A stretch of 44,305 nt of DNA from an uncultured Bacilli bacterium (GCA_947589275.1 CANQAQ010000003.1:1-44305); one strand, 5' to 3'; shown: positions 2,940 to 44,305, counted from the stretch's first letter. Program-made: numbers and translations. Notes: a model not told the origin generated them from the sequence alone.

Positions 2940-2992
2940 CTTTTAAATAAATAAAATGTGTTGTATAATAGTGTTAATAGGAGATGAGGTTT

Positions 2993-5359: not shown

Positions 5360-5371
5360 TAATGCTTTTTT
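5347..5371 (+). terminator. Intrinsic terminator
   Basis: aaaaaagcatta/taatgctttttt inverted repeat overlapping the stop codon. Confidence 0.7.
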
Positions 5372-5424
5372 ATTTGCAATTTATACATATTTTTGGTATT
5401 ATACGCTTAAATAGAGGTGGTATT

Positions 5425-6117
5425 TTGGAGTCATATTATACGACTATATTAAATATAAAAAATAAAGATTATCTTAATATGTTAAAAAAATTAAGTATTT
5501 ATTATAAATATGGTAAAGTAGCTGGTGATAAAATTATTAGTAACGATTTGGATAATTGCATTAGTTATGAAAATATTGCAGATTTTTTATATGAGTTTAT
5601 AGAATCAAATAAGATATTACTAAATTTTTATTTAAGTCAAGGTCTAAATCCCAATGCAAAAATTATTGAGTTTGTTCCATCCTCACTTCTTTCATTTCAA
5701 AATACTGGTCAATTGCAGCACATAACTTCTATAATAAAATATAGAAAAAATACAGATCAATTTGGAGAATATTATATTGGTACTTTAAAAAAATCAGGTT
5801 TTAATATTCATGATGATTTTGCATATGAGCCAAAAGATTATGATACAGTTTTAAATAATTCAATAATTGATATACTAAAAAATTTTAATGGGGAACACGA
5901 TTTTATATCAGATGTTCATGGTATTAAATTTGCAGAAGATAATGATTATAACTTTTTTAGTGGTTATGCAATTAAAAATTCAAGTTTACTTAGAGATTAT
6001 ATAATTGAAGATTTTATTAAATCAATTGAAAAAACGACAGTACCACATGAGTGTATACTTTTTAAAAGGGAAAATGATTATACACTTGGACTTGTAAAAA
6101 GGAATTTAGAAGATTAA
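5425..6117 (+). CDS. Hypothetical protein (about 230 aa)
   Basis: Long ORF; promoter TTGCAA-N17-TATTAT (5374-5402) and SD GAGGTG support a TTG start at 5425 rather than ATG 5362; no recognised motif. Confidence 0.65.
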   Translation: MESYYTTILNIKNKDYLNMLKKLSIYYKYGKVAGDKIISNDLDNCISYENIADFLYEFIESNKILLNFYLSQGLNPNAKIIEFVPSSLLSFQNTGQLQHITSIIKYRKNTDQFGEYYIGTLKKSGFNIHDDFAYEPKDYDTVLNNSIIDILKNFNGEHDFISDVHGIKFAEDNDYNFFSGYAIKNSSLLRDYIIEDFIKSIEKTTVPHECILFKRENDYTLGLVKRNLED

Positions 6118-28766: not shown

Positions 28767-29435
28767 ATGAGATTATCAAATAGATTAAAAGCAATAACTG
28801 ATTTTATTGATGGTAATGAGAAAATAATCGATATAGGATGTGATCATGCATTTTTAGATATTTATTTATGTGAAAACTATAATAACATAAAAGTAATTGC
28901 ATCAGATATTCATGAAGGTGCAATTAATAATGCATATAAAAATATTGAAAAACATAATTTAACTAAAAAAATAGATTTAAGACTTGGTGATGGATTATCT
29001 ATAGTTAATAGTGATGAAATAGATACAATTATAATTTCAGGTATGGGATATTATAATATTATTTCAATATTAAATAATAAAGAAAAAATGATAAATGTTA
29101 ATAAGATAATAATACAATCAAATACAGATATTGTTAAACTTAGAAAATCTGTACTTAAATTAGGTTATAAAATATCAAAAGAAAAACTAGTAAAAGATAA
29201 AGATATTATATATACAATAATAGAATTTATAAAAGGAGAAGAAAAATATAGTTACGAAGAAATTTATTTTGGACCTGATATTTTAAAACATAAAGATGAG
29301 TTATTTTATGAATATTATAATAAAAAATTATTAAAATATGAAAATTTATTACTTCAACTACCATATACTCATATTCTTACAAAACTTCATCATATGAGAT
29401 TAATTAAGATAATAAAAAAGGAAGTTAAAAATTAA
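28767..29435 (+). CDS. trmK: tRNA (adenine22-N1)-methyltransferase
   Basis: LSNRL, DIGCDHA, LGDGL, ISGMG; position after sigA. Confidence 0.92.
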   Translation: MRLSNRLKAITDFIDGNEKIIDIGCDHAFLDIYLCENYNNIKVIASDIHEGAINNAYKNIEKHNLTKKIDLRLGDGLSIVNSDEIDTIIISGMGYYNIISILNNKEKMINVNKIIIQSNTDIVKLRKSVLKLGYKISKEKLVKDKDIIYTIIEFIKGEEKYSYEEIYFGPDILKHKDELFYEYYNKKLLKYENLLLQLPYTHILTKLHHMRLIKIIKKEVKN

Positions 29436-29505
29436 AACACAATATGTGTTTTTTTATTTAATAAAAAAAGACACATAAATATGTGTCAAACTTAAAAGTT
29501 TAACT

Positions 29506-29817
29506 TTATATAAAGAAACTAGGTTGATTTTCATCATAGTTATAGGTTTCATTAATATTATTAGAATTATTAATAGAATTATTATTATTTTGGATATTTG
29601 TATCTGAATTACTAGCACTAGTAAATGCACTAGCAAGTCTAAGCATAGTTTTAGCATTATTAAAAATTGGTTTAACTTGATATACAAGTGGTATTGCTTG
29701 ATTAACAATATTTAAAGTTTTTTGTGTATTACTAAGAAGTCCTGCCCAATTAATACTTCTTCTTGCAATTGGTGCAATTGCTCTTAGTGGCATATATGAT
29801 CCAATAGGATTAAACAT
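29506..29817 (-). CDS. VrrA/YqfQ family protein
   Basis: LLSNTQKTLNIVNQAIPLVYQVKPIFNN core, low-complexity tail ending PSFFI; SD GGAGG. Confidence 0.7.
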   Translation of the reverse strand: MFNPIGSYMPLRAIAPIARRSINWAGLLSNTQKTLNIVNQAIPLVYQVKPIFNNAKTMLRLASAFTSASNSDTNIQNNNNSINNSNNINETYNYDENQPSFFI

Positions 29818-29918
29818 AAGTATTACCTCCCTGTAAATATTATATGAAACACATAAAAAAAAGTTTAAAAATTAATATATATATGTTATAATCAATTATA
29901 GAATAGAGGAGTTGAGTT

Positions 29919-31682
29919 ATGAACACTTTAAAAAAAATAATAAAAAGTATTCTTAATACAATATGTAATATATTTTTATTTATAATTTTATTACCACTTA
30001 ATATATTTAAGTATTTTAATTTATTTTTTTACTATTTAATAAAACTTGCATTAAGAGAGTCACCTGAGAAAAAACAAAAAAGATTAGAAAAAGAAAAAGA
30101 AAGAGAAGAAGAAAAAGAAAAAGAAAGAAAAGAAGCAGAAAAATATATTAGGGAAAAGAATAAAGAAGCTAATATCTCTGCATTAAAAGATGCTCAAAGT
30201 GAAAAAAATAAAATTAATGAGCAAGTTAAAGCTCCTAGTCATAAAATGACTAAAGAAGAGATAAGGGAAGAACATAGAATAGCAAAAGAAAAAATAAAAA
30301 GAGAAAAACAAAGGCAAAGAGAAGAAGCAAGAAAAGAAAAAAAGAGTATTTTAAAACAGTTTAAAGAAAGAAACTTTTTTGCACTTAGAAGACAAAGAAA
30401 ATTAGATTCAAAAAGAAAAGTATTAACATTAGATATAAATTCTGATGATTCAAAAAGAAGTAATGAAAAAATTATATTTAGATATGTAGGTAAAAATGAA
30501 GCAGGTAAAATTGAAAGAGGAACATTCCAAGGATATTCAAAACTTGATGTTCATTCATATTTATTATCTGAAGGATATGAAGTATATGAAATAAAAGCAG
30601 TTGCAAAAGCTAACTTATTTAATACAGATTTATCACTTAATAGACCGATTAAGAAATCTTTATTAGTATTTTATATAACTCAATTATCAACATATTTAAA
30701 AGCAGGTATACCACTTGTTGATTCAATAAAAATATTAACAAAGCAAACAAAATCAAAAAGTGTTAAAACAATTTGGAAATCAATAGTATATGAGCTTACG
30801 ATGGGTGCAAGTCTTAGTGAGGCTATGATAAGATGTGGTAATGTATTTCCAAAATTATTAATTAATATGATTAAAACTGCTGAAATGACTGGTGATTTAC
30901 CTGAGGTACTTGATGAACAAGCAGAGTATTATAAAACTACTGAGCAATCAAAAAGAGAAATGATAAATGCAATGTTATATCCACTTGCAATATTTATTTT
31001 TTCCATTGCAATAATTATATTTATATTATTATATGTAATACCACAATTTGTAGAGATATATGAAAGTATTGGTGCAGACCTTCCATGGTTTACTCAACTT
31101 CTAATAAATATTAGTAATTTTGCATCAAAGAATATTATTTGGATGGCTGTTATTGCTATAGTAATAGTAATAATATTCATAATACTATATAAAAATAATT
31201 CATCATTTAAATATGGTGTTGAATACTTATTAATGCATATTCCTGTTATTAAAAATGTTATAATATATAATGAAGTAACAATGTTTTCGAAGACATTTGC
31301 AACACTTATAAATAATAATATTTTTATAACTGATAGTATGGATATACTAAGTAGAATTACAGAAAATGAAATATATAAAATGATAATATATGACGCAGTA
31401 GAAAATTTATCTAGAGGTGAAAATATTTCTACATCATTTTATGATCATTGGGCTTTCCCTGATATAGCATATCAAATGATAGTAACTGGTGAAAAAACAG
31501 GTCAGTTAGGTATAATGATGGATAAAGTGGGGGATTATTATCATGATGAACATTCAAATGCAATAGCAAGAATCAAAGTATTCATTGAACCAGTATTAAT
31601 TATATTTTTAGCAGTTGGTGTTGGTGGAATATTGCTTGCAGTATTATTACCTATGTTTAATATATATAGTCAAGTTATATAA
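29919..31682 (+). CDS. pilC: Type IV pilus/T2SS platform protein PilC/GspF with N-terminal extension
   Basis: FRYVG..AGKIERG, QLSTYLKAGIPL, AEMTGDL, AMLYP, GEKTGQL, IEPVLI, LLPMF. Confidence 0.9.
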   Translation: MNTLKKIIKSILNTICNIFLFIILLPLNIFKYFNLFFYYLIKLALRESPEKKQKRLEKEKEREEEKEKERKEAEKYIREKNKEANISALKDAQSEKNKINEQVKAPSHKMTKEEIREEHRIAKEKIKREKQRQREEARKEKKSILKQFKERNFFALRRQRKLDSKRKVLTLDINSDDSKRSNEKIIFRYVGKNEAGKIERGTFQGYSKLDVHSYLLSEGYEVYEIKAVAKANLFNTDLSLNRPIKKSLLVFYITQLSTYLKAGIPLVDSIKILTKQTKSKSVKTIWKSIVYELTMGASLSEAMIRCGNVFPKLLINMIKTAEMTGDLPEVLDEQAEYYKTTEQSKREMINAMLYPLAIFIFSIAIIIFILLYVIPQFVEIYESIGADLPWFTQLLINISNFASKNIIWMAVIAIVIVIIFIILYKNNSSFKYGVEYLLMHIPVIKNVIIYNEVTMFSKTFATLINNNIFITDSMDILSRITENEIYKMIIYDAVENLSRGENISTSFYDHWAFPDIAYQMIVTGEKTGQLGIMMDKVGDYYHDEHSNAIARIKVFIEPVLIIFLAVGVGGILLAVLLPMFNIYSQVI

Positions 31683-31693
31683 GGAGTTTTATA

Positions 31694-32503
31694 ATGGAAA
31701 CAATATTATATAGTATATTTATATTCATAATAGGAACTTGTTTTGGTTCCTTCTTTAATGTAGTAGGATATCGTTTGCCTAATAATATGTCTATAGCATA
31801 TCCTTCATCACATTGTCCTAATTGTAAACATAAACTTGGAGTTCTTGAACTTATACCAGTTTTATCTTATATATTTCAATTTGGTAAATGTAAACACTGT
31901 AAGGAAAAAATATCAATATTTTACCCCATATTTGAATTATTAACAGGTATATTATTTGTTATATGTTATCTTGTATTTAAAGATACATATCCAGAAATTT
32001 ATAATGTAATATTTGCAATTGTATTTATATCATCTTTAATAATAATTATTATCAGTGATATAAAATATATGATTATACCAGATGAAGTATTAATATTTTT
32101 TAGTATAATACTTCTTCTAATAAAAATGGTTATAATACATAAATTAAATGTAAATTATACATGGATAGATGTAGGTTATGAACTTTTATTTAGTTTATTT
32201 GATGGAATTATAATGTTTATTATTATGTATGGAATTAGATTTTTTGGTAATTTAATATTTAAAAAAGATTCAATGGGTGGTGGAGATATAAAAATGATGG
32301 CATTTATATCACTATTTATTGGATGGGAATTAGGAGTTGTAGTAATATTTTTAGCATCATTTTTAGCTCTTCCATTATCAATAATAAATATGTATAAAAA
32401 TAAAGAACATATATTAGCATTTGGTCCTTATTTAGCGATAGCAACAATGATTTTATTCTTGTGTAAAATAGATATTAATATGGTAATTGAATTTATATCA
32501 TAA
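31694..32503 (+). CDS. pilD: Prepilin peptidase/N-methyltransferase (A24)
   Basis: GSFFNVVGYRLP, SHCPNC..GKCKHC, D..YMIIPD, MGGGDIK, AFGPYL. Confidence 0.93.
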   Translation: METILYSIFIFIIGTCFGSFFNVVGYRLPNNMSIAYPSSHCPNCKHKLGVLELIPVLSYIFQFGKCKHCKEKISIFYPIFELLTGILFVICYLVFKDTYPEIYNVIFAIVFISSLIIIIISDIKYMIIPDEVLIFFSIILLLIKMVIIHKLNVNYTWIDVGYELLFSLFDGIIMFIIMYGIRFFGNLIFKKDSMGGGDIKMMAFISLFIGWELGVVVIFLASFLALPLSIINMYKNKEHILAFGPYLAIATMILFLCKIDINMVIEFIS

Positions 32504-32535
32504 AAAAACTTCATTTTGTAATATGAAGTTTTTTT
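32502..32535. terminator. Bidirectional terminator between pilD and def
   Basis: aaaaaaacttcat-N8-atgaagttttttt. Confidence 0.8.
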
Positions 32536-32567
32536 GCTATAAATGAGGTTAATATCAAAATAATATT

Positions 32568-33116
32568 TTATATTGCCCTCATATTGTTTTGATTTTTAAA
32601 TGGATTTTTTTTATCTATATGGTCAAAAAATAATATACCATTTAGATGGTCATATTCATGTTGGAATGCTACAGATAATTCATCTCTAAGTCTTATCTCA
32701 TGTTTATTACCATCCATATCATAATATTCTACATTAACTCTAGCATATCTTGGTACTATTCCGTTAACTTCTCTATTAACACTTAAACATCCTTCTCCAC
32801 CTTCAACATATACTAATTCTTCTGAATTACTAATTATTTTAGGATTTATAAATATATAATTTTCAAATTTTCCTTCTTCATATTCATATACGATTACAAA
32901 GAATCTTTTATTAATACCAAGTTGTATAGCTGCAAGCCCCATACCAGGTCTTAAATTATATTTTTTAGCTTCTTCTTCAATTTGACTAAGTGTAAGCATT
33001 TCAATAGAATCTAAAATAACCTTTTTATACTTTTCATCCATAGGAAATGTTATATCAATGCTCTTTTTTCTTAATCTTTTATCTTTCTCATCTAGTATAT
33101 TTTTACTTAAAATCAT
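32568..33116 (-). CDS. def: Peptide deformylase (Gram-positive type II)
   Basis: GMGLAAIQ, EGCLS, QHEYDHLNG; SD AGGTGG favours ATG 33116. Confidence 0.96.
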   Translation of the reverse strand: MILSKNILDEKDKRLRKKSIDITFPMDEKYKKVILDSIEMLTLSQIEEEAKKYNLRPGMGLAAIQLGINKRFFVIVYEYEEGKFENYIFINPKIISNSEELVYVEGGEGCLSVNREVNGIVPRYARVNVEYYDMDGNKHEIRLRDELSVAFQHEYDHLNGILFFDHIDKKNPFKNQNNMRAI

Positions 33117-33157
33117 AACAACCACCTAATTCATGTGATTATTTTACCATATTTAAA

Positions 33158-33184
33158 AAAAAAAGTCCATTTTGGACTTTTTTT
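33158..33184. terminator. Terminator of the YjcZ-family gene
   Basis: aaaaaaagtcca-ttt-tggacttttttt. Confidence 0.7.
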
Positions 33185-33383
33185 AAAAATTACTATTTCC
33201 ACGGTTAAAGAATCCAGCACCAATAACAATTACAAGTAATATAAATAATACTAATATTATAGCAGCACCATAACCAGATCCATATCCATAACCTTGTGAA
33301 ACAGGATATGCATATCCACCTTGGCCACCACCACAGCATGGATTGTTATAACCATATCCACCACTATATCCGTAATAATACAT
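33183..33383 (-). CDS. YjcZ family small sporulation protein
   Basis: Gly/Tyr-rich N-terminus then GAAIILVLFILLVIVIGA; SD AGGAGG. Confidence 0.85.
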   Translation of the reverse strand: MYYYGYSGGYGYNNPCCGGGQGGYAYPVSQGYGYGSGYGAAIILVLFILLVIVIGAGFFNRGNSNF

Positions 33384-33511
33384 ACTAAAACCTCCTTTTT
33401 ATTTTTCTATTATATTGTATTAATTATGTAAATAAAATGTTATTTAATTAACCTAAATATAGGTAATTTTGTTTATTTATGATATTATTATTAGTAAAGG
33501 AGAATATGAAT

Positions 33512-34654
33512 ATGGTTAGAATGTTAAATAAAATGGATAAAACATTATTAATACTTACTGTATTTATGTTTGCTTTTGGATTATTTATGATATTAGATGC
33601 ATCTAGTATGAGATCCTTTTTGGATTATGGGGTAAATACTAAATATTTTACTAAACAATTAATAGTACTAATTGGAAGTTTTATATTATCAATAATAATT
33701 ATGAAAATACCACTAAAAAGATATAATAAATTAATATATATGATGGCTTTAATAATTATATTTATGTTAGTAGTATTACTAGTATCTGGAGTTGCGACTA
33801 ACAATTCAAAAAGCTGGTTTTATATTGGATCATTTGGAATTCAACCAAGTGAATTTGCTAAGATTATTATAATATTATTTACTGCAATTTATTATAATAT
33901 TAATATAAAAAAATTAAATAATTTAATTATTTCATCTGTACCTCTTATTTTAGGTGCAATATGTACAGGATTAACTCTTCTTCAACCAGATGGAGGAACA
34001 GGACTTATATTATTTTTTATTTCTACAATTTTATTTTATATATCTCCAGTAACAAAAAAAATAAAATCAAGAATTACAGTTATAGGACTTGGCTTTGCCG
34101 TTATTATTTTACTTGCTATTGTTATAACAGGTAAAAGTCCATTATCTGATATGCAAAAAAATAGATTTAATTATTTTAATCCATGTACTAGATATCAAGA
34201 AGATTCAGGATATCAGGTTTGTAATGGTTATATAGCTATTAATAATGGGAAATTATTTAGTATTGAACCTGGTAATAGTAAACAAAAGTATTTATATTTA
34301 CCAGAAGCACATACTGATTTTATATTTCCAATAATAGTAGAAGAAATGGGACTTATAACTGGTATATTAGTTATTATAATCTATATGATAATAATTTATA
34401 GAATTTTATTAATAGGTCAAAGATCATATAATTTAACTAACTCATTAATATGTTATGGAGTAGCGTTATATATATTTTTACATGTAGTTATAAATTTAAC
34501 AGGAGTTCTTGGAATACTTCCACTTACAGGAGTACCACTTCCATTTTTAAGTTATGGTGGTTCGTTTGCAATAACAGTTACAATTTCACTTTCATTAGTA
34601 CAAAGAGTATGTATAGAAAATTATAATTTTGAAAAGAAAAAAGTTCTAAATTAA
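33512..34654 (+). CDS. FtsW/RodA/SpoVE family SEDS protein
   Basis: IQPSEFAK, LQPD.GT, YLPEAHTDFIF, PLTGVPLPFLSYGGS; SD AAGGAG spacing favours ATG 33512. Confidence 0.92.
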   Translation: MVRMLNKMDKTLLILTVFMFAFGLFMILDASSMRSFLDYGVNTKYFTKQLIVLIGSFILSIIIMKIPLKRYNKLIYMMALIIIFMLVVLLVSGVATNNSKSWFYIGSFGIQPSEFAKIIIILFTAIYYNINIKKLNNLIISSVPLILGAICTGLTLLQPDGGTGLILFFISTILFYISPVTKKIKSRITVIGLGFAVIILLAIVITGKSPLSDMQKNRFNYFNPCTRYQEDSGYQVCNGYIAINNGKLFSIEPGNSKQKYLYLPEAHTDFIFPIIVEEMGLITGILVIIIYMIIIYRILLIGQRSYNLTNSLICYGVALYIFLHVVINLTGVLGILPLTGVPLPFLSYGGSFAITVTISLSLVQRVCIENYNFEKKKVLN

Positions 34655-34744
34655 TAAAAAGCAACTAAATTTATACAAAAAGATACCAATAGTTGGTGTT
34701 GCTACTAATATTATTTATATTATAATTTTGGTAGAGGTGATATT

Positions 34745-36115
34745 ATGAAGTTTTGTGATAAATTAGCAAAACAAAGAAAAAATAATAATTTAAGTCAAGA
34801 ACAACTTGCAGATAAGTTAGGTGTATCAAGACAAGCTGTTTCAAAATGGGAACAAGGTACGTCTTATCCTGATATGGATAAGATAATAAGTATGTGTAAA
34901 ATACTTAATTGTAATTTAGATGATTTAATTGAAGATGGAATTATAGAAGGAAAGAGTAGTGCAAATAAAATAAATTTTAATAATTATTTTAATGACTTTT
35001 TAAATTTTATAACTAAATCATATAATATGTTTTGGAGTATGAAATTTAAAGAAAAAATAAAATGTTTATTTGAATTATTTATTACATTTTTAATTTTAAT
35101 AATAAGTGGTTTAGTAATATATTTTATAGTTGATGATTTATTTTTTGATAATTTTATGGATGTTTTGGGAATAAATTTTATTATTCAAAAACTAATTAGT
35201 CCTGTATTTATATTATCTTTAATTGTAATAGGAATAATGATATTTTTACACTTATTTAAAATTAGATATTTAGATTATTTCATTACTGTTTATGATAGTG
35301 ATGTAAAAGAAAAAATAAAAGAAAAAGCGTTAGAAGAAGAAAAAGTAGTAAATAATAAAAAATACATAATAGAAAAACCTAAAGAAAAAATAGTAATTAG
35401 AGATCCAAAACATTCTACATTTAATTTTTTTAATGTATTAGGTAAAATAATATTATATATATTAAAATTCTTTATTTTTATCCTTATGATATTAGCTATA
35501 TTTTTTACAATAGCTTTAATAGCAATAGGTGCTATATGGATAACATTTATTAAATATGGAGACATTTTTATATATCTACTTATAACTATTATAGGTTTAG
35601 TATGTATTAGTTTTATAATAATTAATTTCTTATATAATTTTATATTTAATAGAGCAACAAAACTTAAATTAAATTTTATACTATTTATAATATCTTTAAT
35701 ATTTATTGGTGTAGGTTTAGGAATTAGTACAATAAAATTTATGAATTATGATTATGTTACTTTAGATAAATCTAAACTTGAAATTCATGAAAAAATAATA
35801 CCTATGAAAGATAATATTGTATTACCACATAATAATATAAATTATATTATTGATAATAACCAAAATGATATAAAACTTAAAATATATTTACCTAAAAATA
35901 CAAGTTATACAATATATTATAATAAAGATCAGTATGAAATTTATCATATATACATGGATAATTTATCAATATTTGATATGTATAATATTACATTAAATGA
36001 ATTAAAAGAAAATAAAATAATTGACTATGATAAATCATTTATAATAGATGTATATATATCAGAAAAAAATTATGAAATAATTAAAGAAAATATAGATAAT
36101 TATTATGGATATTAA
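34745..36115 (+). CDS. XRE-family HTH regulator fused to a multi-TM membrane domain
   Basis: LSQEQLADKLGVSRQAVSKWEQG..YPD followed by several TM segments. Confidence 0.85.
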   Translation: MKFCDKLAKQRKNNNLSQEQLADKLGVSRQAVSKWEQGTSYPDMDKIISMCKILNCNLDDLIEDGIIEGKSSANKINFNNYFNDFLNFITKSYNMFWSMKFKEKIKCLFELFITFLILIISGLVIYFIVDDLFFDNFMDVLGINFIIQKLISPVFILSLIVIGIMIFLHLFKIRYLDYFITVYDSDVKEKIKEKALEEEKVVNNKKYIIEKPKEKIVIRDPKHSTFNFFNVLGKIILYILKFFIFILMILAIFFTIALIAIGAIWITFIKYGDIFIYLLITIIGLVCISFIIINFLYNFIFNRATKLKLNFILFIISLIFIGVGLGISTIKFMNYDYVTLDKSKLEIHEKIIPMKDNIVLPHNNINYIIDNNQNDIKLKIYLPKNTSYTIYYNKDQYEIYHIYMDNLSIFDMYNITLNELKENKIIDYDKSFIIDVYISEKNYEIIKENIDNYYGY

Positions 36116-36141
36116 AGTTATGTTTTTACATAACTTTTTTT
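36114..36141 (+). terminator. Terminator after the XRE gene
   Basis: aaagttatgt-tttt-acataacttt followed by a T run. Confidence 0.7.
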
Positions 36142-36244
36142 ATAAATTGACAATATAAATAAAAATTACTTATAAAGTAATTTTTTTATTTTAATTTTAA
36201 TTATTTAATGATATAATTAACATATAGTAAAGGTAGGATAAAAA

Positions 36245-38893
36245 ATGAAAAATAAAAAAGGATTTACATTAATAGAATTACTAGCAGTAATAGTAATATT
36301 ATCAATAATAATGATAATAGCAGTACCAAAAATAATAAATATAATAGAAGAAGCAGATAGAAGAGCATATGAAAATAGTGTAAACTTAATGGTAGAAGCA
36401 GCAAGATTAAAATATCAAACAGGAACTATGAAAGGAGAAGATATAAAATTACCATTAACATATATATATGAAGGAAATAAACAAACAAATATAGAAGAAG
36501 TAGGAGAATTAGTATTTAAAGGAGATAAAGCAAATTCAGGAACAATAACAGTAAATCAAGAAGGAAAAATAGTAGTAGAAAACTTAGTAAGTAAAAATAA
36601 AAAATGGTGTGCAGTAAAACAAGCAAATAATGCAGAAGCAAAAGTAGGAAGAGCAAGCGTTTTAGGGTGTTCTATAGATGATAATGATGATAATAATGGT
36701 GATGATGAAGAAGAGATAATAAAAGACAAAGAAGCATGTAGTTTAGAACAAGATAGTAAAAATGAAAATATATATTATGTAGATTCAGTAAGTGATTTAT
36801 ATGAATTATCAAAAGAAGTAAATGAAGGAAATAACTATAGTGGTAAGATAATAAAACTAAGAAATAATATAGATATGAAAGATACAAGTAATAAATGTGG
36901 ACTAGAAAGTTTTGAACCAATAGGAAATAATAGTAAACCATTTAGTGGTACATTTGAAGGATTAGGAAATTCAATAAAGAATTTAGTAATAAATAAGCAA
37001 GGACAAGATGATATTGGATTATTTGGAAATAACTCTGGAACAATAAAAGGATTAAGTTTAGAAAATATAGATATAAAAGGTAAAAGTAGTATTGGTGGAT
37101 TAGTAGGACGAAATAATAATGGAAAAATAAGTGACATTATAATAAATGGAAAAGTAGAAGGAACTGGTGAAAATATTGGTGGACTAGTAGGAGTTCATAG
37201 TGGTACTATAGCAAATATAATAATGAATGTAGATGTAAATAAAGATGTAACGGGAGCAACTAGAGTAAGTGCAGTATTGGGTAATTTAGGAATTGGAACA
37301 CGATCAGTTAATAACGTAATTATAGAAGGTGGAGAAATAAATGGAAGATTAGAATATTATAGTAGTTATTCAGAAAATGTTTTGCATAATGATTCTAAAG
37401 AAAAATATCCTTCTAATCTATATTCAAAAGAAGCAATAGGTGATATAAATACATACGAAACTTATATAGATACATATATAGGTGGGGATGATGATGACTC
37501 AGGATATTACTTTGATTATGATAGCAAGGGAAAATTAGTAATAAAAAGTATAGAAAAAAATCCAATAGAATTTAATTTAAAAGGAAAAGGAACACAAGAT
37601 GATCCATATTTAATAGAAAATTATGAAGACTGGAAAGAAGCAACAACAAAGGTAGACCAAGTAAATATAGTATTTAAGTTAACAAAAGATATAGATTTTA
37701 CAGGTAAGAAATTTTATATGTTAGGAAGTTATCAGAATCAGTTTAATGGACATTTAATTGGAGATGGATATAGTCTTAAGAATGTTAATTTAAATGGTGG
37801 AGATTATCAAGGAATTATTGGATATGTTGGAACTGAAGGTATAGTTGAAGGTATAAATGTAAAATCTTTAAATACAAATAATACTTTTAATTATGTAGGA
37901 GTAATAGGATACAATAAAGGGATTGTTAAAGGTATAAATATATATAATGTATATGTAATAGGTAGAAGTTATATAGGTGGATTGGTTGGCTATAATGAAG
38001 GAAAAATATTAGAAATTACTATAGAAGGAAATATATATGGAGTTGTAAATGAAGAACAATTTATAGGTGGAGCAGTTGGACTAAATAATGGAACAATAAG
38101 AGGAATATTAGCTAATGTAAATGTTACAAGTTCTTATAATACTACATTTGCACGTTCTTCAGGAGGTTTATTTGGTCAAAATGGTAGAGGTACAATATAT
38201 AATTCAGTTATTGAAACTGGTAATGTATTGGCAGAGAATATAGTTATGGGTAGAGGAGCTTCTTCATATGATGTATATTATTGTGAGGGTGTAACAACTA
38301 CAGGTAGTATATTTACTAAATCAATACCTAGTATATATATAAATGATTTAACATATTATGATAGTATGTTAAATGATAAAAATGAGCCATTATTTGAAAG
38401 TAAATATACAGGAGATATGAATGATTCTGGATATTTCTTTGATTATAATAGTGATGGAAAAATATATGTAGTAAAAGCTTATAATATGAATTATGGTGAT
38501 AATAGTATAGATGAAAATTATACAATGACACATATAGAACAAGGAGCATCAGATCAAACACCACCAGTATGTACATTAGATTATGTAGTAGCAGTAAAAA
38601 ATGGAATAAGAGCATCATTTAGCTGCGTAGATGAAAGTGGAGCGCCAACAATAAGGTCACTATTTGATTCAACTACAAGTTTATCAGCAAGTACATATGA
38701 AGATATAGGAACAAATAAAAATGGAGTAGTAAATGGAAATACTAGAAGTATAGTAAGTACATGGACAATAAATGATCCAGTATCAGTGCCAGAAAGAGGA
38801 AAGTGTTATTATTTTAGATATGGAGGTCAAGATACAGCAGGTAATTTTAGTACATATGTAACAAAAAGATGTTATACAGGTTTTAGTAATTAG
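36245..38893 (+). CDS. Large type IV prepilin-fused protein with duplicated GLUG-type beta-helical modules and a C-terminal Ig-like module
   Basis: KKG|FTLIELLAVIVILSII class III signal with E+5; repeated IGGLVG motifs; two modules ending DSGY(Y/F)FDY; DQTPPVC...DTAGN. Confidence 0.85.
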   Translation: MKNKKGFTLIELLAVIVILSIIMIIAVPKIINIIEEADRRAYENSVNLMVEAARLKYQTGTMKGEDIKLPLTYIYEGNKQTNIEEVGELVFKGDKANSGTITVNQEGKIVVENLVSKNKKWCAVKQANNAEAKVGRASVLGCSIDDNDDNNGDDEEEIIKDKEACSLEQDSKNENIYYVDSVSDLYELSKEVNEGNNYSGKIIKLRNNIDMKDTSNKCGLESFEPIGNNSKPFSGTFEGLGNSIKNLVINKQGQDDIGLFGNNSGTIKGLSLENIDIKGKSSIGGLVGRNNNGKISDIIINGKVEGTGENIGGLVGVHSGTIANIIMNVDVNKDVTGATRVSAVLGNLGIGTRSVNNVIIEGGEINGRLEYYSSYSENVLHNDSKEKYPSNLYSKEAIGDINTYETYIDTYIGGDDDDSGYYFDYDSKGKLVIKSIEKNPIEFNLKGKGTQDDPYLIENYEDWKEATTKVDQVNIVFKLTKDIDFTGKKFYMLGSYQNQFNGHLIGDGYSLKNVNLNGGDYQGIIGYVGTEGIVEGINVKSLNTNNTFNYVGVIGYNKGIVKGINIYNVYVIGRSYIGGLVGYNEGKILEITIEGNIYGVVNEEQFIGGAVGLNNGTIRGILANVNVTSSYNTTFARSSGGLFGQNGRGTIYNSVIETGNVLAENIVMGRGASSYDVYYCEGVTTTGSIFTKSIPSIYINDLTYYDSMLNDKNEPLFESKYTGDMNDSGYFFDYNSDGKIYVVKAYNMNYGDNSIDENYTMTHIEQGASDQTPPVCTLDYVVAVKNGIRASFSCVDESGAPTIRSLFDSTTSLSASTYEDIGTNKNGVVNGNTRSIVSTWTINDPVSVPERGKCYYFRYGGQDTAGNFSTYVTKRCYTGFSN

Positions 38894-38905
38894 GAGGTAA
38901 TTATA

Positions 38906-39379
38906 ATGAAAAAAATATTATTGATAATATTGATTGGAATTATAATATTTACAGGTTGCGGAAAAGAAGATGGTGAAAAGATAAAATATAAAAAAACAAA
39001 TATGGAACTAGTAGATAAAGTATCAAATATTGTTATAAATGATAAAAAGATATTTGATGAAGTAAACATATTAAATGATAATACATTAGAAACAAAATTA
39101 GGAATAAATAGAGACTTTGTAATAGAACATGCTATTGCATTAGATATTTATTCATATAATCCAAATATTTATATTATAATAAAACCAAAAGAAGAAAATA
39201 AAAAAACAGTAAAAAAGGCAATAAGTTTATATTTAGATAGTGCAAAACAAGGAGTAATAGATGAATATAAAGAAATATATGAAAATGCATTAATTGAAGA
39301 ATATAATGGATATTATATTTGTATAGTTTCAGATAATAATGCTGAAGTATTTAATAAAATAAAAGGATATTTAGACTAG
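38906..39379 (+). CDS. Lipoprotein, DUF4358-like
   Basis: Lipobox IFTG|C; ENALIEEYNGYYICIVSD C-terminus; SD overlaps the upstream stop. Confidence 0.65.
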   Translation: MKKILLIILIGIIIFTGCGKEDGEKIKYKKTNMELVDKVSNIVINDKKIFDEVNILNDNTLETKLGINRDFVIEHAIALDIYSYNPNIYIIIKPKEENKKTVKKAISLYLDSAKQGVIDEYKEIYENALIEEYNGYYICIVSDNNAEVFNKIKGYLD

Positions 39380-39433
39380 TAAATATCTTTTTTTTATTAA
39401 TTATGATATAATTAGTATAAGGATAGTGGTACT

Positions 39434-40798
39434 GTGAAAAAGAAAAAAAGAAAAGGAAGATTAAGGTATGATAGAATATTTATGGCCCTATTTATAATAT
39501 TTGCTATAGTATTTTCTATAAAATTTGCCATCTATTTATCATATAATAATAAAATATATAAGACTGTAACAAATTCAAATAATTTATCTATAACTATAAA
39601 TAAAAAATATAATAAATTAAAATTATATAATAAGACTATAAAATATATAAAAGAAAATAAAAATAGTGTAATTATTTCATCAAAAAAATATAGTGTTACT
39701 ATACCTTCAAAAAACATAACAAAAAATGCTAATTTAGATGTTAGTATGTATAGTAAAAGATTAGAGTATGATAATTTTTCAAAATCTAAAGCTTATTTTA
39801 TAGATAATAAAGGAATAATAAGTAAATCAAATAAAATAAAGATATTATTACCTAGATATTTATTAAAAAATGATATTGTAGATATTTATGGTGTTACTAA
39901 AGATAATAAAATAGAAGAAATAAATCTTAAAGTTAAAATAAAAGATAAAAAAGTATCATTTGATTTAAATGAAAAATATTCAAAATACTTTATAACTTAT
40001 GTAAAACTAAAAGATATAAAAGTTAAAGATATTACTTTAAATAAAGGAAGTAAAATAAACTTAGATATTAAATATGTACCTATTAGAGCAACTGTTAAAA
40101 GTTTTGAATATATTAAAATAGGTGATATATTTATGTTAAATGATAATAATGAATTAATTGCAGAGAAATCTGGAACTGATAAAGTTACAATTAAAATTAA
40201 TGACTCAAATATTAAAAAAGATATTACTATAAATGTTAAAGAAGAAGAAAAAAAGAAACCTATTATTAAAGTTATTGATGGACTTACATATGTTAATGAT
40301 ATACTTATAGTAAATAAAACATATGAATTACCTAGTGATTATGATCCAGGTCAATTATCTGATGAAGCTATTTCCGCTTTTAATACTATGAAGGAAGCAG
40401 CTAAAAAAGATAATATATCACTATGGATAGCATCTGGTTATAGATCATATACTACACAAGATGAATTATATAATTATTATTTAAAACATGATACTAAAGA
40501 TAAGGTAGATACATATTCTGCAAGACCTGGACATTCTGAACATCAAACTGGTTTAGCAATGGATTTAAATATTGTAGATTCATCATTTGAAGGTACTAAA
40601 GAAGCTATATGGATAGAAGAAAACTGTTATAAATATGGTTTTATAATTAGGTATCCTAAGGGTAAAGAAAATATAACAGGATATAAATATGAACCATGGC
40701 ACGTAAGATATTTAGGTAAAGATTTAGCAAAAAAAGTATATGATAGTAATCTTACATTAGAAGAATATTTAGATATTGATTCAAAATATAGCGAATAA
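39434..40798 (+). CDS. M15B (VanY/LdcB-like) carboxypeptidase with membrane anchor and Ig-like stalk
   Basis: SGYRSY..Q, SARPGHSEHQTGLAMD, YEPWHVRY. Confidence 0.9.
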   Translation: MKKKKRKGRLRYDRIFMALFIIFAIVFSIKFAIYLSYNNKIYKTVTNSNNLSITINKKYNKLKLYNKTIKYIKENKNSVIISSKKYSVTIPSKNITKNANLDVSMYSKRLEYDNFSKSKAYFIDNKGIISKSNKIKILLPRYLLKNDIVDIYGVTKDNKIEEINLKVKIKDKKVSFDLNEKYSKYFITYVKLKDIKVKDITLNKGSKINLDIKYVPIRATVKSFEYIKIGDIFMLNDNNELIAEKSGTDKVTIKINDSNIKKDITINVKEEEKKKPIIKVIDGLTYVNDILIVNKTYELPSDYDPGQLSDEAISAFNTMKEAAKKDNISLWIASGYRSYTTQDELYNYYLKHDTKDKVDTYSARPGHSEHQTGLAMDLNIVDSSFEGTKEAIWIEENCYKYGFIIRYPKGKENITGYKYEPWHVRYLGKDLAKKVYDSNLTLEEYLDIDSKYSE

Positions 40799-40842
40799 CC
40801 TCAAAATATGATATAATAACTCTCCAAAAGGAGGGTTTTATT

Positions 40843-41688
40843 ATGCAAGTTGAAAAAGATATAGAAGCTGCAAGAGGGTTAATAAAAGGAGATATAGAAA
40901 AATATTATAAAATGGGTTATAGAAGAATAAAATTATTTACTAATAGACCATTAAAATTCTTTAAAAAATATAATTTAAATAATAAAGATGTATTATCAAA
41001 ATATGAAACTGGTGATGAGGTAATTGATTTATTATCTTATGGAGCAAATGTAACATGTTATAGTTCAAATAGATTGGATGAATATTTTTTATATTTAAAA
41101 CTTGCATTCTTATCACAAAATTATAATGATTTTTTTACATTTTATTTTAATAAATATAAAAATAGTTTTAATGCATTTACAAAAGAAGGTTATTTAAAGG
41201 TAAGAGATAATTTAGATGAAAAAACTAGATATTTTTTTGATGAAATTTTTAAACTAAATATACCAAACATATTAAAAACAAGATTATTTACTGATACAAC
41301 TTTATCTTATGATATATTAAAAGAGCATTATATTAGGTATTTTATTAATAGTAGGTATTATGAAGCAAGAAATAATTTAGAAACAAAAAAAGTAGAATTT
41401 ATTCTTGCAACTGATGGTAAGATACCATCAAAATTAGATGGGAAATTATTTAATTTTATTAATTTATCTTACAATATGGATAAAGAAAAATTAGAATATA
41501 TAAAATCTAAAATACAAAGTTATTTTGTACCTATGTTAGCAGAATATGGAAAAATTCAATGTTTTGTTTTAGATAATGATATTGATATAGATGGTTATAA
41601 AAAAATTGAAGTAAATGGTATTCAGCCTTCTTTAAATATGGGTGAAGAACGTAAAACATATTATGCATATGTGTATAAAAATGTATAA
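40843..41688 (+). CDS. Divergent DUF3419-like (SAM-dependent transferase fold) protein
   Basis: LFTN..L, KDVL....GD, N.LDEYFLYLK.A, FNFINLS pattern; SD GGAGG. Confidence 0.5.
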   Translation: MQVEKDIEAARGLIKGDIEKYYKMGYRRIKLFTNRPLKFFKKYNLNNKDVLSKYETGDEVIDLLSYGANVTCYSSNRLDEYFLYLKLAFLSQNYNDFFTFYFNKYKNSFNAFTKEGYLKVRDNLDEKTRYFFDEIFKLNIPNILKTRLFTDTTLSYDILKEHYIRYFINSRYYEARNNLETKKVEFILATDGKIPSKLDGKLFNFINLSYNMDKEKLEYIKSKIQSYFVPMLAEYGKIQCFVLDNDIDIDGYKKIEVNGIQPSLNMGEERKTYYAYVYKNV

Positions 41689-41746
41689 TTTATTGACAAC
41701 AATTTATTATAAGTAATAAAATAATATTGTCTAAAGGAGTGATAAA

Positions 41747-43363
41747 ATGGGGAAAGTATATATATTTGGACATCAAAATCCAGATACAGATTCGGTAACT
41801 GCGTCAATTAGTCTTTCTTACTTAAAAAATAAATTAGGTATGAATACAGAACCAAGAATTTTAGGACATATAAATAAAGAAACAAAGTATGCTCTTAGTT
41901 ATTTTAATGTTAAAGAGCCTAAGTATTTAAATGATGTTAAATTACAATTAAAAGATGTAGAATATTTAAAAGGTATATATATAAATAAAAATAGTTCTAT
42001 ATATGATGTGTATGAATATTTAAATAATAAAGGTATAACAGGGGTACCTATAGTAGATGATGATAATAAGTATATTGGTATTATTACTGTTAAGGATATA
42101 GCAAAAGAATTAATAAAAGGGGATATTCATTTTTTAGATGCTAATTACGATAATATATTAAATGTAATAAATGGTGAAGAAATACTTAAATTTGATGATA
42201 ATATAAAAGGTAATGTACTTGTTGCGTCATATAGAAGTACAACATTTTTAAATAATATTAATTTAAATAAGGATAATATCTTAATAGTAGGAGATAGGCA
42301 TAGTATTATTGAAGATGCTGTAATTAAAGGAATAAAATTAATTATAATTACAGGAAATGGTGAGATAAAGGATAAACATTTAGAAATAGCAAAACAAAAT
42401 AGAGTTAATATTATTAGAACAGAAAATGATTCCTTCTATACATCAAAATCTATTGGTTTATCAAATTCAATAAGTTTATTAATTAGAAATGATGATTCAA
42501 AAATATTTAGAGAAAATGATTATTATGATGACTTTGTTAATATAACTAAAAAATTAAAACATAATAACTATCCTATTCTTGATAATCACAATAAATGTTT
42601 AGGATTAATAAGAATAACTGAAATAGTAAAAAATAATAACAAAGAAGTTATATTAGTAGATCATCAAGAAATAGATCAAAGTGTAACTGGTTTAGAAGAA
42701 GCAAATATATTAGAAATAGTAGATCATCATAAAATAGGAAATATAAATACTAATACTCCTATTAATTTTAGAAATATGGCAGTAGGTAGTACAAATACAA
42801 TTATATATTTTATGTATGATGAAAGTAATATTAAAATACCTAAAGATATAGCTGGAATTATGCTTTCTGGAATACTTTCTGATACATTATGTTTAAAAAG
42901 CCCAACAACAACTTCCTTAGATAAAAAGGTAGTAGAAAGTTTATCAAAAATTATAGGTATAGATTATGAAAAATATGCTATTAATATGTTTAGAGCAGGT
43001 ACATCAATTGAAGGTTTAAGCGTAGAAGAAGTAATTAAAAATGATTTTAAATCATTTCCAGTTGGGGATGAAAAAATATCAATAGGTCAAGTATTTACTT
43101 TAGATGTTGATAAAATATTTAACAAAATTGATGATTACATAAAAAAATTAGAAGAAATAAATACTAGAGAAGGATACAAGTTTACTATTATTTGTATAAC
43201 AGATATACTTAAAAATGGTTCATATATTCTTTATACTAAATATGCAAAAAAAATACTAGAAAATATATATAATATAGATGATATAAATCAAGGATACTAT
43301 ATTGATGGGTTAGTATCTAGAAAAAAACAAATATTACCATTAGTAATATCTGAATTAAATTAA
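41747..43363 (+). CDS. ppaC: Mn-dependent inorganic pyrophosphatase with CBS and DRTGG domains
   Basis: GHQNPDTDS, VGDR, DHH, GILSDT, SRKKQ. Confidence 0.94.
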   Translation: MGKVYIFGHQNPDTDSVTASISLSYLKNKLGMNTEPRILGHINKETKYALSYFNVKEPKYLNDVKLQLKDVEYLKGIYINKNSSIYDVYEYLNNKGITGVPIVDDDNKYIGIITVKDIAKELIKGDIHFLDANYDNILNVINGEEILKFDDNIKGNVLVASYRSTTFLNNINLNKDNILIVGDRHSIIEDAVIKGIKLIIITGNGEIKDKHLEIAKQNRVNIIRTENDSFYTSKSIGLSNSISLLIRNDDSKIFRENDYYDDFVNITKKLKHNNYPILDNHNKCLGLIRITEIVKNNNKEVILVDHQEIDQSVTGLEEANILEIVDHHKIGNINTNTPINFRNMAVGSTNTIIYFMYDESNIKIPKDIAGIMLSGILSDTLCLKSPTTTSLDKKVVESLSKIIGIDYEKYAINMFRAGTSIEGLSVEEVIKNDFKSFPVGDEKISIGQVFTLDVDKIFNKIDDYIKKLEEINTREGYKFTIICITDILKNGSYILYTKYAKKILENIYNIDDINQGYYIDGLVSRKKQILPLVISELN

Positions 43364-43370
43364 AAAAATA

Positions 43371-43400
43371 TTGACAAAAATAATAATAAAAATGTATACT
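43371..43400 (+). promoter_or_regulatory. sigmaA promoter of the pilin-leader/fibre gene
   Basis: TTGACA-N18-TATACT. Confidence 0.6.
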
Positions 43401-43426
43401 TAAATAAAAAATAGGATAGTGATAAA

Positions 43427-44203
43427 ATGAATAAAAAAGGATTTGCATCATCAGTAATAATATATACAATATTTGCAATATTTTTAGTAGCAATAAGTAT
43501 AATGTTATTTACAGTAAATAATAGTGTTGCGTTAAACAAAGCATTAAATGAAGGTACATTAAACAATATATCATATGGATCAGATTCAGTAAGTGATTTA
43601 GAAGAAAGAATTGCAGCATTAGAAAGTACTATAGTGGATAAAATATATCCAGTTGGAAGTATATATATAAGTGCTGAAGATGATACAGTCGAAAAAGTAA
43701 AAGAAAGATTTGGAGGAGAATGGGAAGCATATTCAAAAGGTACAACACTTGTAGGAAGTGGAACATATACTGATAGTAATGGTAATGTAGCAACATATAC
43801 TGTAAATGGAAAACAAGAAGGTAGTAACTTGGTAAAATTAACAACAGAAAACTTACCAAGTCATAGTCATAGTATAAGTCATACTCATACATATAGTGGA
43901 ACAACAGCTGGTTCTGGTAGTCATACACATTCATTTTCTAATGGAGGTAATGCTATTGTAGTAGGATCTAATGTTAATCATACTACTTATGCTGATGGAT
44001 TTGCATCATTTACAAATGGTGGCTGGTGGAATCAGACTAACAAAGCATCTTCTGCTATAGCTTCTGTTGCTAATCATACACATACGTATAGCGGAACAAC
44101 AAAACAAGCAAGCACTACAACAAGTGGACTTACAGGGTCAGGGACAGCATTTAATGCACATGATCCATATATAACAGTTTATATGTATAAAAGGGTAAAA
44201 TAA
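43427..44203 (+). CDS. Prepilin-like leader fused to a phage baseplate gp10-C/tail-fibre-like domain
   Basis: MNKKG|F plus hydrophobic helix; IYPVGSIYIS..FGGEWE..LVG..LTTENLPSHSH..PYITVYMYKR; four HxH doublets. Confidence 0.8.
   Translation: MNKKGFASSVIIYTIFAIFLVAISIMLFTVNNSVALNKALNEGTLNNISYGSDSVSDLEERIAALESTIVDKIYPVGSIYISAEDDTVEKVKERFGGEWEAYSKGTTLVGSGTYTDSNGNVATYTVNGKQEGSNLVKLTTENLPSHSHSISHTHTYSGTTAGSGSHTHSFSNGGNAIVVGSNVNHTTYADGFASFTNGGWWNQTNKASSAIASVANHTHTYSGTTKQASTTTSGLTGSGTAFNAHDPYITVYMYKRVK
43880..44101 (+). repeat. Intragenic 27-nt direct repeat (HTHTYSGTT x2)
   Basis: 43880-43906 catactcatacatatagtggaacaaca versus 44075-44101 catacacatacgtatagcggaacaaca (24/27 identical). Confidence 0.85.
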
Positions 44204-44299
44204 TACCTTTTTTATTTACAAATAAAATGTAAAATCCTTGTTTTAAAAGGATTTTTTATGTTATAATACAAAATAGTGGATAGTAGAGGAGAAGTAGTT

Positions 44300-44305
44300 A
44301 TGGCA
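44300..44305 (+). CDS. Start of the next gene (truncated by the window edge)
   Basis: SD GAGGAG and TG-TTATAAT upstream of ATG GCA. Confidence 0.5.

Follow-up and report, generated by a model that had tools for sequence, protein, structure and literature searches.

What kind of apparatus is encoded when the genes for a type IV filament platform protein and a prepilin peptidase stand together with no ATPase or pilin gene beside them, and when two genes further along the same DNA carry pilin-like leaders in front of unrelated cargoes? The question is raised by positions 29,919 to 44,203 of a 44,305-nucleotide (nt) stretch of DNA from an uncultured Bacilli bacterium, which was analysed at its full length and is called the window below. 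The window is the whole of contig C3 of a source assembly of 904 kb in 56 contigs (genome G000, ~23% G+C, 89.6% complete). Labels C1 to C34 denote contigs of this genome, G133, G134, G210, G230 and the like related genomes, P-numbers homologous proteins and L-numbers loci; absences reported for this genome (PilM, PilN, PilO, PilT, DprA) are to be read at the completeness just given. We propose, with a probability of roughly three in four, that the window encodes part of the sole type IV filament system of this organism, and that the sequences describe an adhesin-display pilus built on modular pilins.

The product of pilC (coordinates of all features are given in Table 1) contains two T2SSF domains in Pfam (E 2e-53, 180 bits), and pilC is the sole T2SSF gene of the genome. 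Among NCBIfam models the protein scored highest with GspF (270 bits), then with PilC (242) and ComGB (153; cut-off 240), every equivalog cut-off being missed, and it matched PilC of Myxococcus xanthus with 178.8 bits. The preliminary description had seen PilC as GspF/PilC-like rather than ComGB-like, and these scores agree with it. Residues 1-186 (29919-30476) form an N-terminal extension consisting of a hydrophobic segment and a long Lys/Glu-rich stretch; across the order, open frames that contain the PilC core are between 431 and 871 amino acids (aa) long, so that this extension is lineage-wide and of variable length. PilD matches A24_N_bact (E 9.6e-34, 115.7 bits) and Peptidase_A24 (E 7e-14, 52.6 bits), both above cut-off, and has two CxxC motifs and a GGGD motif. 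The two genes are separated by 11 nt and followed by def (minus strand), rodA and a gene for a helix-turn-helix membrane protein. Apart from the pilin gene described below, the remaining genes between 32568 and 43363 were classed from Pfam as housekeeping or unrelated, and no ATPase or pilin gene was found beside pilC-pilD in the window, so that the two-gene unit stands as first described.

The genome is not devoid of a PilB-like ATPase. A PilB/GspE-type gene lies outside the window at C26:9869-11170 and is the sole T2SSE gene above cut-off in the genome (417 bits). Its product scored 484 bits with the GspE model, 464 with PilB, 270.9 with ComGA (cut-off 300) and 181 with PilT, no equivalog cut-off being reached, and 344, 340 and 122 bits against the solved structures of GspE, PilB and PilT in the PDB. 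It is an ATPase of the extension type, without the N-terminal domains of long PilB proteins. A second T2SSE gene that could encode PilT was not found above cut-off, the best PilM_2 match reached 18.1 bits (cut-off 27) and the PilN and PilO models had no match in the genome, so that the type IVa hallmark set of PilM, PilN, PilO and PilT was not recovered. An ATPase, a platform, a peptidase and pilins without PilMNOP or PilT is the composition described for the Com pilus (PMC10191384), and the same minimal machinery is present here as in that pilus (ComGA, ComGB, ComC, ComGC-GG). In contrast to the Com pilus, the ComGA and ComGB equivalog cut-offs were missed here (270.9 vs 300 and 153.1 vs 240 bits) and the GspE/PilB and GspF/PilC models scored higher, no comG operon is present, and the pilins are large and carry adhesin modules. 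In gene content the system thus appears as minimal as a Com pilus, and its sequences are closer to GspE/PilB and GspF/PilC. It is the only type IV filament system found in this organism.

The first of the two leader-bearing genes of the window encodes a protein of 882 aa that starts with MKNKKG followed by FTLIELL and matches both N_methyl (E 1.4e-8) and TIGR02532. An AlphaFold model made from an alignment of 33 homologues, with a predicted local distance difference test score (pLDDT) of 85.2, shows a 54-residue helix (9-62) and a small sheet that make up the pilin module, then a linker, two beta-helices and a beta-sandwich. The two beta-helix modules are 35% identical to each other (E 1e-19). 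The best Foldseek match of the model was 3n6z, a putative IgA1 protease of Bacteroides ovatus (E 5e-6, probability 1.0), followed by streptococcal and Gemella IgA1 proteases (probability 1.0) and, weakly, by tailspike beta-helices; the family profile compared with the PDB gave an IgA1 protease (E 2.2e-5) and, at the N-terminus, several type IV pilins. In the protein itself Pfam Glug stayed below threshold (17.4 and 15.4 bits, cut-off 20.5), as did Peptidase_M26_N (14.8 vs 27.7 bits); homologue P0006 passes Glug with 26.7 bits. A fold of the GLUG/IgA1-protease type is therefore assigned from this homologue, the PDB profile, AlphaFold and Foldseek. As neither a Pfam peptidase domain nor an HExxH motif was found in the 882 residues, the cargo would correspond to the non-catalytic beta-helix part only. 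Homologues numbered 872 at E <= 0.001 among 7,998 candidates scored, and PF07963 was found in 115 of the 120 homologues among the matches listed. By its sequence and modelled structure the protein is a modular type IV pilin, with a class III motif, a pilin module and a non-pilus domain. The preliminary description had recognized here a pilin leader with beta-helical cargo made of GLUG-type modules. The leader and the beta-helical cargo are confirmed, the fold is of the IgA1-protease type with GLUG itself below threshold in this protein, and the cargo is C-terminal to the pilin part, not on the pilin N-terminus.

Pilins with a Glu at position +5 (Glu5 pilins) were sought in the whole genome by a leader scan, by tblastn and with the strict DNA pattern KGFTL[IV]E. 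Eleven full or nearly full genes were found, together with one cut start at C11:4-24; for one of them, which runs from C26 into C28, the two contigs were joined by an exact 77-nt overlap. With at least 12 Glu5 pilin genes and four Glu5-less fibre genes (see below), the two leader proteins of the window are far from being the only ones. The Glu5 pilin genes adjoin housekeeping genes (veg/spoVG, tsaD, the RNase J gene, rsmD, tyrS and the like), and pilin and fibre genes occupy ~14.8 kb, or 1.6% of the assembly. Many contig breaks fall in pilin or fibre genes, so further copies may be unassembled. The strict pattern matched 8 times in this genome and 0 to 39 times (median 5) over 61 genomes, the reversed-pattern control giving 0 everywhere; 20 of the 61 genomes had at least 8 matches, and the number of pilins in this genome is therefore not exceptional for the family.

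The way in which cargo is exchanged can be seen by comparing the window pilin with the DUF285 pilin on C18. Between -108 and about +440 nt the DNA of the two genes is ~90% identical, positions -58 to -8 being the same in both (50/50), and further on they are unrelated; the first 151 residues of the proteins are 79% identical. The carrier is thus the promoter together with the entire pilin module of ~145 aa, with the linker as the point at which cargo is swapped. It had been suggested that the class III leader acts as a generic export tag for interchangeable adhesins scattered through the genome. A dispersed filament system with large, interchangeable cargo of the adhesin type is what we found, and the shared unit is much larger than the leader. 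Little beyond a leader and a helix precedes the cargo in one case only, that of the fibre protein described below.

The following sequence of events is proposed by analogy with characterized systems. PilD would cut after Gly-1 and methylate Phe+1, and the ATPase-platform pair would polymerise a short major pilin, for which the 131- to 145-aa pilins on C1, C11 and C20 are candidates. With their ~145-aa pilin module, large pilins would be built into the filament, most likely at the tip or close to it, so that the C-terminal modules are exposed as adhesins: two IgA1-protease-type beta-helices for the window pilin, and DUF285/PARCEL and BspA-type leucine-rich repeat (LRR) modules for pilins encoded elsewhere in the genome. 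New combinations would arise by recombination at the linker, behind the shared promoter-plus-pilin-module cassette. The weakest step concerns the 258-aa protein encoded at the end of the window, a second class with a gp10-C-type head on a Glu5-less helix, which might also be a PilD substrate and sit at the very tip, like other Glu5-less subunits.

Several of these modules are known on pilins elsewhere. The entries IPR005046 and IPR026906 are, we presume, DUF285 and the BspA-type LRR. Modular pilins were defined from PilB of Streptococcus sanguinis and described as comprising >1,200 proteins in 264 architectures; in Dataset S1 of that study IPR012902 is found fused to IPR011493, called an M26-type module (6 proteins), and other fusions involve IPR005046 (9, with multi-copy forms in addition) and IPR026906 (18, with 6 in addition) (Raynaud et al. 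2021, PMC8179133). The modular surface display proposed in the preliminary description is this published modular-pilin concept and is not new (PMC8179133). The minor pilins PilB (vWA) and PilC (lectin) of S. sanguinis resemble the large pilins described here in having a class III signal, a small pilin module, a short linker and a large adhesin-type module, in a monoderm. In S. sanguinis a single pil operon holds the pilin genes together with those for PilMNO and PilT; neither PilMNO nor PilT was found in the present genome, and its pilin genes, at least 12 in number, are scattered among housekeeping genes and share promoter-plus-pilin-module cassettes. Two further publications deal with other systems and were set aside: a paper on TANB77 pilins, which concerns a Tad-type cluster in Clostridia (PMC11680825), and PMC12306168, in which type IV pili are mentioned for another reduced lineage only.

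The second leader-bearing gene encodes the 258-aa protein. It starts with MNKKG followed by FASSV, and its head matches Gp10_C (PF21939) with 58.1 bits (cut-off 27), the paralogues reaching 61.1 and 46.4 bits. Compared with the PDB, the head profile found a phage long tail fibre (8kec, E 9.6e-10) and T4 gp10 (2fkk, 5hx2; matches down to E 1e-5). Among 32 aligned homologues, K4, G5 and A7 are invariant, position +1 is Phe or Tyr in 32/32 and Glu5 occurs in 0/32; homologues down to 37% identity keep K-G-[FY]-A, and the stretch that separates the His-rich motifs of the head is freely variable. Gly-1, an aromatic residue at +1 and ~21 hydrophobic residues in a long helix (3-45, in a low-confidence model) are thus present. 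The AlphaFold monomer has a pLDDT of 56.6 overall, with a confident start of the head.

Three full copies of the fibre gene were found in the genome (258 aa on C3, 313 aa on C7, 378 aa on C18) together with a fourth start on C24. The 5' untranslated region (UTR) and the first ~100 nt are identical in the four copies, which are mosaic beyond: in an alignment of the full copies (43427-44203, L004:153-1094 and L005:16493-17629), C18 is almost the same as C3 over columns 660-840 and as C7 over columns 480-600. As judged from these sequences, the mosaicism points to recombination among copies. The copies are flanked by genes for pyrophosphatase and parE/parC (C3, C34), by clpP and recA (C18, C19), and by a pilin gene and a sortase gene (C7). 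On C7 (L004:2056-4601), the genes for the 289-aa pilin and the fibre protein are directly preceded, on their own strand, by the sortase gene and one for a 635-aa WG-repeat protein, so that two surface-display routes appear to be encoded side by side. In the congener G134, whose PilC is 80% identical, a fibre-type gene starts 27 nt after pilD, and a fibre-type gene directly follows a Glu5 pilin gene both in G134 (579-aa pilin) and on C7 of the present genome.

The same head is also found on both carriers. P0220, with a Glu5 pilin module, and the Glu5-less P0126 are 84% identical over 231 aa of head, and a second head variant shows the same distribution (P0209 vs P0128, 82% over 236 aa). A search of 1.84 billion representatives gave 20,197 members of the head family at E <= 0.001. 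When the N-termini of the best 150 of these 20,197 were sorted by regular expressions, the Glu5-less leader was present in 32 and a canonical Glu5 pilin module in 14; the remaining 104 had different N-termini, for the most part Sec-like signals or anchors. The head would thus be a surface module with several delivery routes, of which pilus display is one. In another congener (G133:C12:17299-23988, L100), the gene for a 2,229-aa protein with a Sec-type signal and the fibre head motif precedes two short genes for heads that have signal peptides. Within the order the fibre family is unevenly distributed, being present in 30/201 genomes, in 5/5 of its own genus and in up to 12 copies per genome.

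Glu5-less leaders are not without precedent. The GspK-type K subunit and PilA of S. sanguinis have class III leaders that are degenerate and lack Glu5, and each is regarded as the first subunit, at the top of the filament (PMC9934059). The fibre proteins resemble them in Gly-1 and the lack of Glu5, with Phe/Tyr at +1; the K subunit and PilA have a globular pilin fold, whereas the fibre proteins appear, from the low-confidence model, to pass from a helix to a coiled coil and a phage-fibre head. CofB of the type IVb pilus of enterotoxigenic Escherichia coli is a minor pilin with extra C-terminal domains; it forms a trimer that is predicted to sit at the pilus tip (PMC8179133). It offers a precedent for three pilin N-termini that bear a trimeric head; a trimer of the fibre proteins is hypothetical, and CofB comes from a diderm with a type IVb system and differs in the fold of its head. 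The head profile matches the C-terminal domain of phage T4 gp10 and the long tail fibre (2fkk, 5hx2, 8kec); unlike in phages, the gene is cellular, multi-copy and outside any phage context, and its product has a membrane-targeting N-terminus. From these comparisons, that the fibre protein is a PilD-processed tip subunit is a tentative proposal, to which we give somewhat less than an even chance. A fuller version is improbable as a whole: the Glu5-less proteins would be PilD-processed subunits reduced to the alpha-1 helix and forming homotrimeric pilus-tip caps, their phage-receptor-binding-type heads attaching to glycans of bacteria or of the host, with a repertoire renewed by mosaic recombination, carrier swaps and poly-G promoter switching.

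The promoter-like site upstream of the window fibre gene was among the three best such sites in 29400-44305. As the scan overall did not rise above shuffles (150 sites vs 155.6), the weight given to this site comes from the shared cassette only, the same boxes and 5' UTR being found before the fibre paralogues on C7, C18 and C24. Five G/C runs of at least 7 are present in the genome and four of them are exactly 10 long, compared to ~0.001 runs of 10 expected. Three of these G10 tracts lie between TTGACA and TATACT, at C7:1128-1137 (fibre gene), C24:53-62 (fibre start) and C10:4235-4244 (GNAT gene) (L004, L109, L110). The fourth, at C6:14852-14861 (L111), is 24 nt downstream of an ATG that has a strong ribosome-binding site and upstream of the gene for an Acyl_transf_3 membrane protein, which adjoins nucleotidyltransferase and phosphoenolpyruvate-mutase-like genes; the ATG frame with G10 stops after 13 codons, out of frame, and G9 or G12 would restore the frame. 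From its sequence this tract may be a translational on/off switch in the off state.

In 1.145 Mb of related loci, 8 runs of at least 8 were found, three preceding Glu5 modular pilins and one a fibre gene; among the matches listed, 7/7 tracts in G230 and 2/3 in G210 lay 109-119 nt upstream of the pilin motif. Poly-G runs of G204, mostly at contig ends and one ~30 long, were set aside as likely sequencing artefacts. At the C7 site, tracts of 8 to 12 (-2, -1, +1, +2) were seen in contigs assembled from public runs, in 3/4 runs; as paralogous promoters share the flanks, this is no more than suggestive of variation at that locus. Homopolymer tracts in promoter spacers cause phase variation at porA of Neisseria (poly-G) and fim of Bordetella (poly-C). 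As at porA and fim, G10 is placed exactly between the -35 and -10 boxes of paralogous genes for surface proteins; the lineage and the gene class differ, the window copy is without a tract, and switching and an effect on expression are putative here. The G10 promoter-spacer tracts probably switch or tune the expression of some paralogues by slippage. In the literature searched, no report was found of poly-G pilin promoters in Firmicutes or of a Glu5-less fibre family.

Several points weigh against the picture of an adhesin-display pilus with its fibre proteins and poly-G control. The system is known here from genes alone, and everything beyond gene content is interpretation. At the present completeness of the assembly, the absence of PilM, PilN, PilO and PilT means not found and is no proof. 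The major pilin is known only as candidates. PilC and the ATPase reach no NCBIfam equivalog cut-off, and the subtype may be type IVa-like or Com-like; with ComEC and ComEA present, DNA uptake may be a main role. As to the fibre protein, it has Val at +5 and no match to N_methyl (PF07963) or TIGR02532, its low-confidence model shows no globular pilin domain, and the 104 of the best 150 head relatives with other N-termini mean that the head does not need a pilus. The co-occurrence of the fibre family with PilC is uninformative because PilC is nearly universal in the order (195/201 genomes). As to the tracts, the window fibre copy has an A/T-rich 18-nt spacer with no G tract, and the variation in tract length comes from contigs only and possibly stems from paralogous promoters.

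From its sequence the 258-aa protein is therefore leader-like and not a canonical pilin. The preliminary description had placed it among the pilin-leader proteins as the carrier of a phage fibre needle; the leader-like start and the Gp10_C head hold, the pilin signature does not. It is quite possible, and still short of probable, that the fibre proteins are signal-anchored trimeric fibres of the cell surface and not pilus subunits, the KG-F motif being an inherited coincidence. The lack of Glu5, of the two pilin signatures and of a modelled pilin domain would be expected on this account, as would the Sec-type signal peptides or other membrane anchors that precede the same head in other genera, and two of the three full copies in this genome have no adjoining pilin gene. 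The invariance of K-G-[FY]-A, kept in all 32 homologues while heads vary freely, argues against it, and so do the fibre-type gene next to pilD in the congener and the two directly after Glu5 pilin genes. Pilus display of the head also exists, since genuine Glu5 pilin modules of relatives bear almost identical heads, and degenerate leaders without Glu5 are known for tip subunits (PMC9934059).

Less likely is that the system is essentially a competence pilus of the Com type, used for the DNA uptake that nucleotide-poor reduced genomes would need, with the large pilins as accessory or occasional users. Its gene content is the Com minimum of ATPase, platform, peptidase and pilins, without PilMNO or PilT (composition as in PMC10191384). 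ComEC and ComEA are encoded on C34, which overlaps the window end by exactly 77 nt, no other type IV filament system was found, and PilC is kept in nearly all of the reduced genomes sampled in the order (195/201). Against this stand the ComGA and ComGB scores below cut-off with much higher GspE/PilB and GspF/PilC scores, the failure to find DprA in this genome, the lack of a comG-like operon of five short pilins and the strict pilin-motif matches, up to 39 per genome and with adhesin-type cargo, which DNA uptake leaves unexplained. Competence and adhesion are not mutually exclusive, and the adhesin-display pilus remains the reading that we prefer. That the fibre gene is a leftover prophage tail fibre, as its Gp10_C domain and its matches to phage long tail fibre and T4 gp10 structures might suggest, is highly improbable and was rejected, since no phage genes flank any copy, all copies have a conserved hydrophobic N-terminus and their own promoter, and three full copies and one start are present here and up to 12 copies in relatives.

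The host group consists of uncultured gut Bacilli with genomes of 0.6-1.6 Mb that have lost most biosynthesis, and the pilus platform is kept in 195/201 sampled genomes despite this loss. This retention and the share of the assembly given to pilin-type genes (1.6%) suggest that the pilus is probably central to holding a host or a partner cell. The modular-pilin strategy being known, what is added here is a natural example with many members and an evident cassette structure, in which promoter and pilin module are shared and the cargo is swapped, and a phage-fibre head family present on both true pilin modules and a Glu5-less helix. Less ordinary are the Glu5-less fibre class, its linkage to pilD and pilin genes, the exchange of heads between carriers, the mosaic paralogues and the poly-G promoters. 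Surveys based on the class III signature motif would miss the Glu5-less form. If the fibre proteins were tip subunits, the definition of what counts as a pilin would widen; if they capped the tip, the bacterium would be using borrowed phage host-recognition hardware on a pilus.

The position of the machinery was compared in 79 related loci fetched with PilC, from uncultured Bacilli, Tenericutes or Mollicutes, Clostridium sp. CAG:594 and CAG:762, and Candidatus Aphodocola, which NCBI taxonomy places in Bacilli incertae sedis. In all 79, pilC and pilD are adjacent, with pilD second, and most have dnaG-sigA-trmK and, on the opposite strand, yqfQ, followed by pilC-pilD; the location of the two genes is thus conserved across the order. 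A PilB-type gene is found downstream of pilD in at least 32 of the 79, and in at least 24 of those within 500 nt of pilD on the opposite strand, both counts being lower bounds as many loci end soon after pilD. Each of the 6 loci inspected has, after pilB and divergent from it, one or two pilin genes. In the present genome pilB and two core minor pilin genes lie together on C26, which indicates that a core cluster was split by rearrangement; in the closest relative (L034, 78% identity), no pilB was found within the 8 kb fetched. The dispersal of the machinery noted at the outset is thus real in this genome and, with pilB near pilD in many relatives, would reflect only a local rearrangement.

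Table 1. Location of the filament-related features in the window and of the Glu5 pilin genes in the genome (aa, amino acids)
Feature	Position	Strand	Size or residues	Remarks
pilC	29919..31682	+	587 aa	platform protein; core residues ~187-587
pilD	31694..32503	+	269 aa	prepilin peptidase / N-methyltransferase
modular type IV pilin	36245..38893	+	882 aa	N_methyl, TIGR02532
leader MKNKKG	36245-36262	+		882-aa pilin
pilin module	36263-36679	+	residues 7-145	882-aa pilin
disordered acidic linker		+	residues 146-155	882-aa pilin, model
beta-helix module 1	36770-37564	+	residues ~176-440	882-aa pilin
beta-helix module 2	37670-38479	+	residues ~476-745	882-aa pilin
C-terminal beta-sandwich	38567-38863	+	residues ~775-873	882-aa pilin
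promoter-like site TTGACA-18 nt-TATACT	43371..43400	+		upstream of window fibre gene; 11/12 consensus positions
Glu5-less pilin-like fibre protein	43427..44203	+	258 aa	Gp10_C
leader-like MNKKG	43427-43441	+		fibre protein
long N-terminal helix		+	residues ~3-45	fibre protein, AlphaFold monomer
flexible low-confidence stretch		+	residues 43-54	fibre protein, AlphaFold monomer
short coiled-coil helix		+	residues 56-72	fibre protein, AlphaFold monomer
Gp10_C-type head	43631-44197	+	residues 69-257	fibre protein
Glu5 pilin	C1		145 aa	short pilin
Glu5 pilin	C3 (window)		882 aa	two GLUG-type beta-helices
Glu5 pilin	C7		289 aa	
Glu5 pilins	C11		143 aa and 131 aa	plus cut start C11:4-24
Glu5 pilin	C15		227 aa	
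Glu5 pilin	C18		513 aa	DUF285, 258.9 bits
Glu5 pilin	C20		140 aa	short pilin
Glu5 pilin	C20 end		688+ aa	LRR_5, 71.2 bits
Glu5 pilin	C26		164 aa	
Glu5 pilin	C26 into C28		169 aa on C26 + ~475 on C28 (~645 aa)	beside pilB; DUF285, 328.9 bits

The other genes of the window are the usual housekeeping genes of Bacillota (valS/leuS-type and alaS synthetases, greA, tig, lon, dnaG, sigA, trmK, def, rodA), and those typical of spore-forming lineages include genes for YqfQ and a SPOCS_spoVID-N protein. Public runs that contain the DNA are labelled as rabbit gut or gut metagenomes. At 2984-6117 (plus strand), where the window is richest in A+T (17-18% G+C), lie the gene for a 791-aa protein with an N-terminal zinc ribbon only and a 251-aa open reading frame (ORF) without a family. 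On the minus strand, positions 33183-33383 contain a 66-aa ORF with no Pfam match, Gly/Tyr-rich, with two adjacent Cys and a hydrophobic C-terminal half. Finally, a 425-aa protein encoded at 23991-25268 (plus strand) combines a Cohesin domain with two Cadherin-like beta-sandwich domains and is likely a surface protein.

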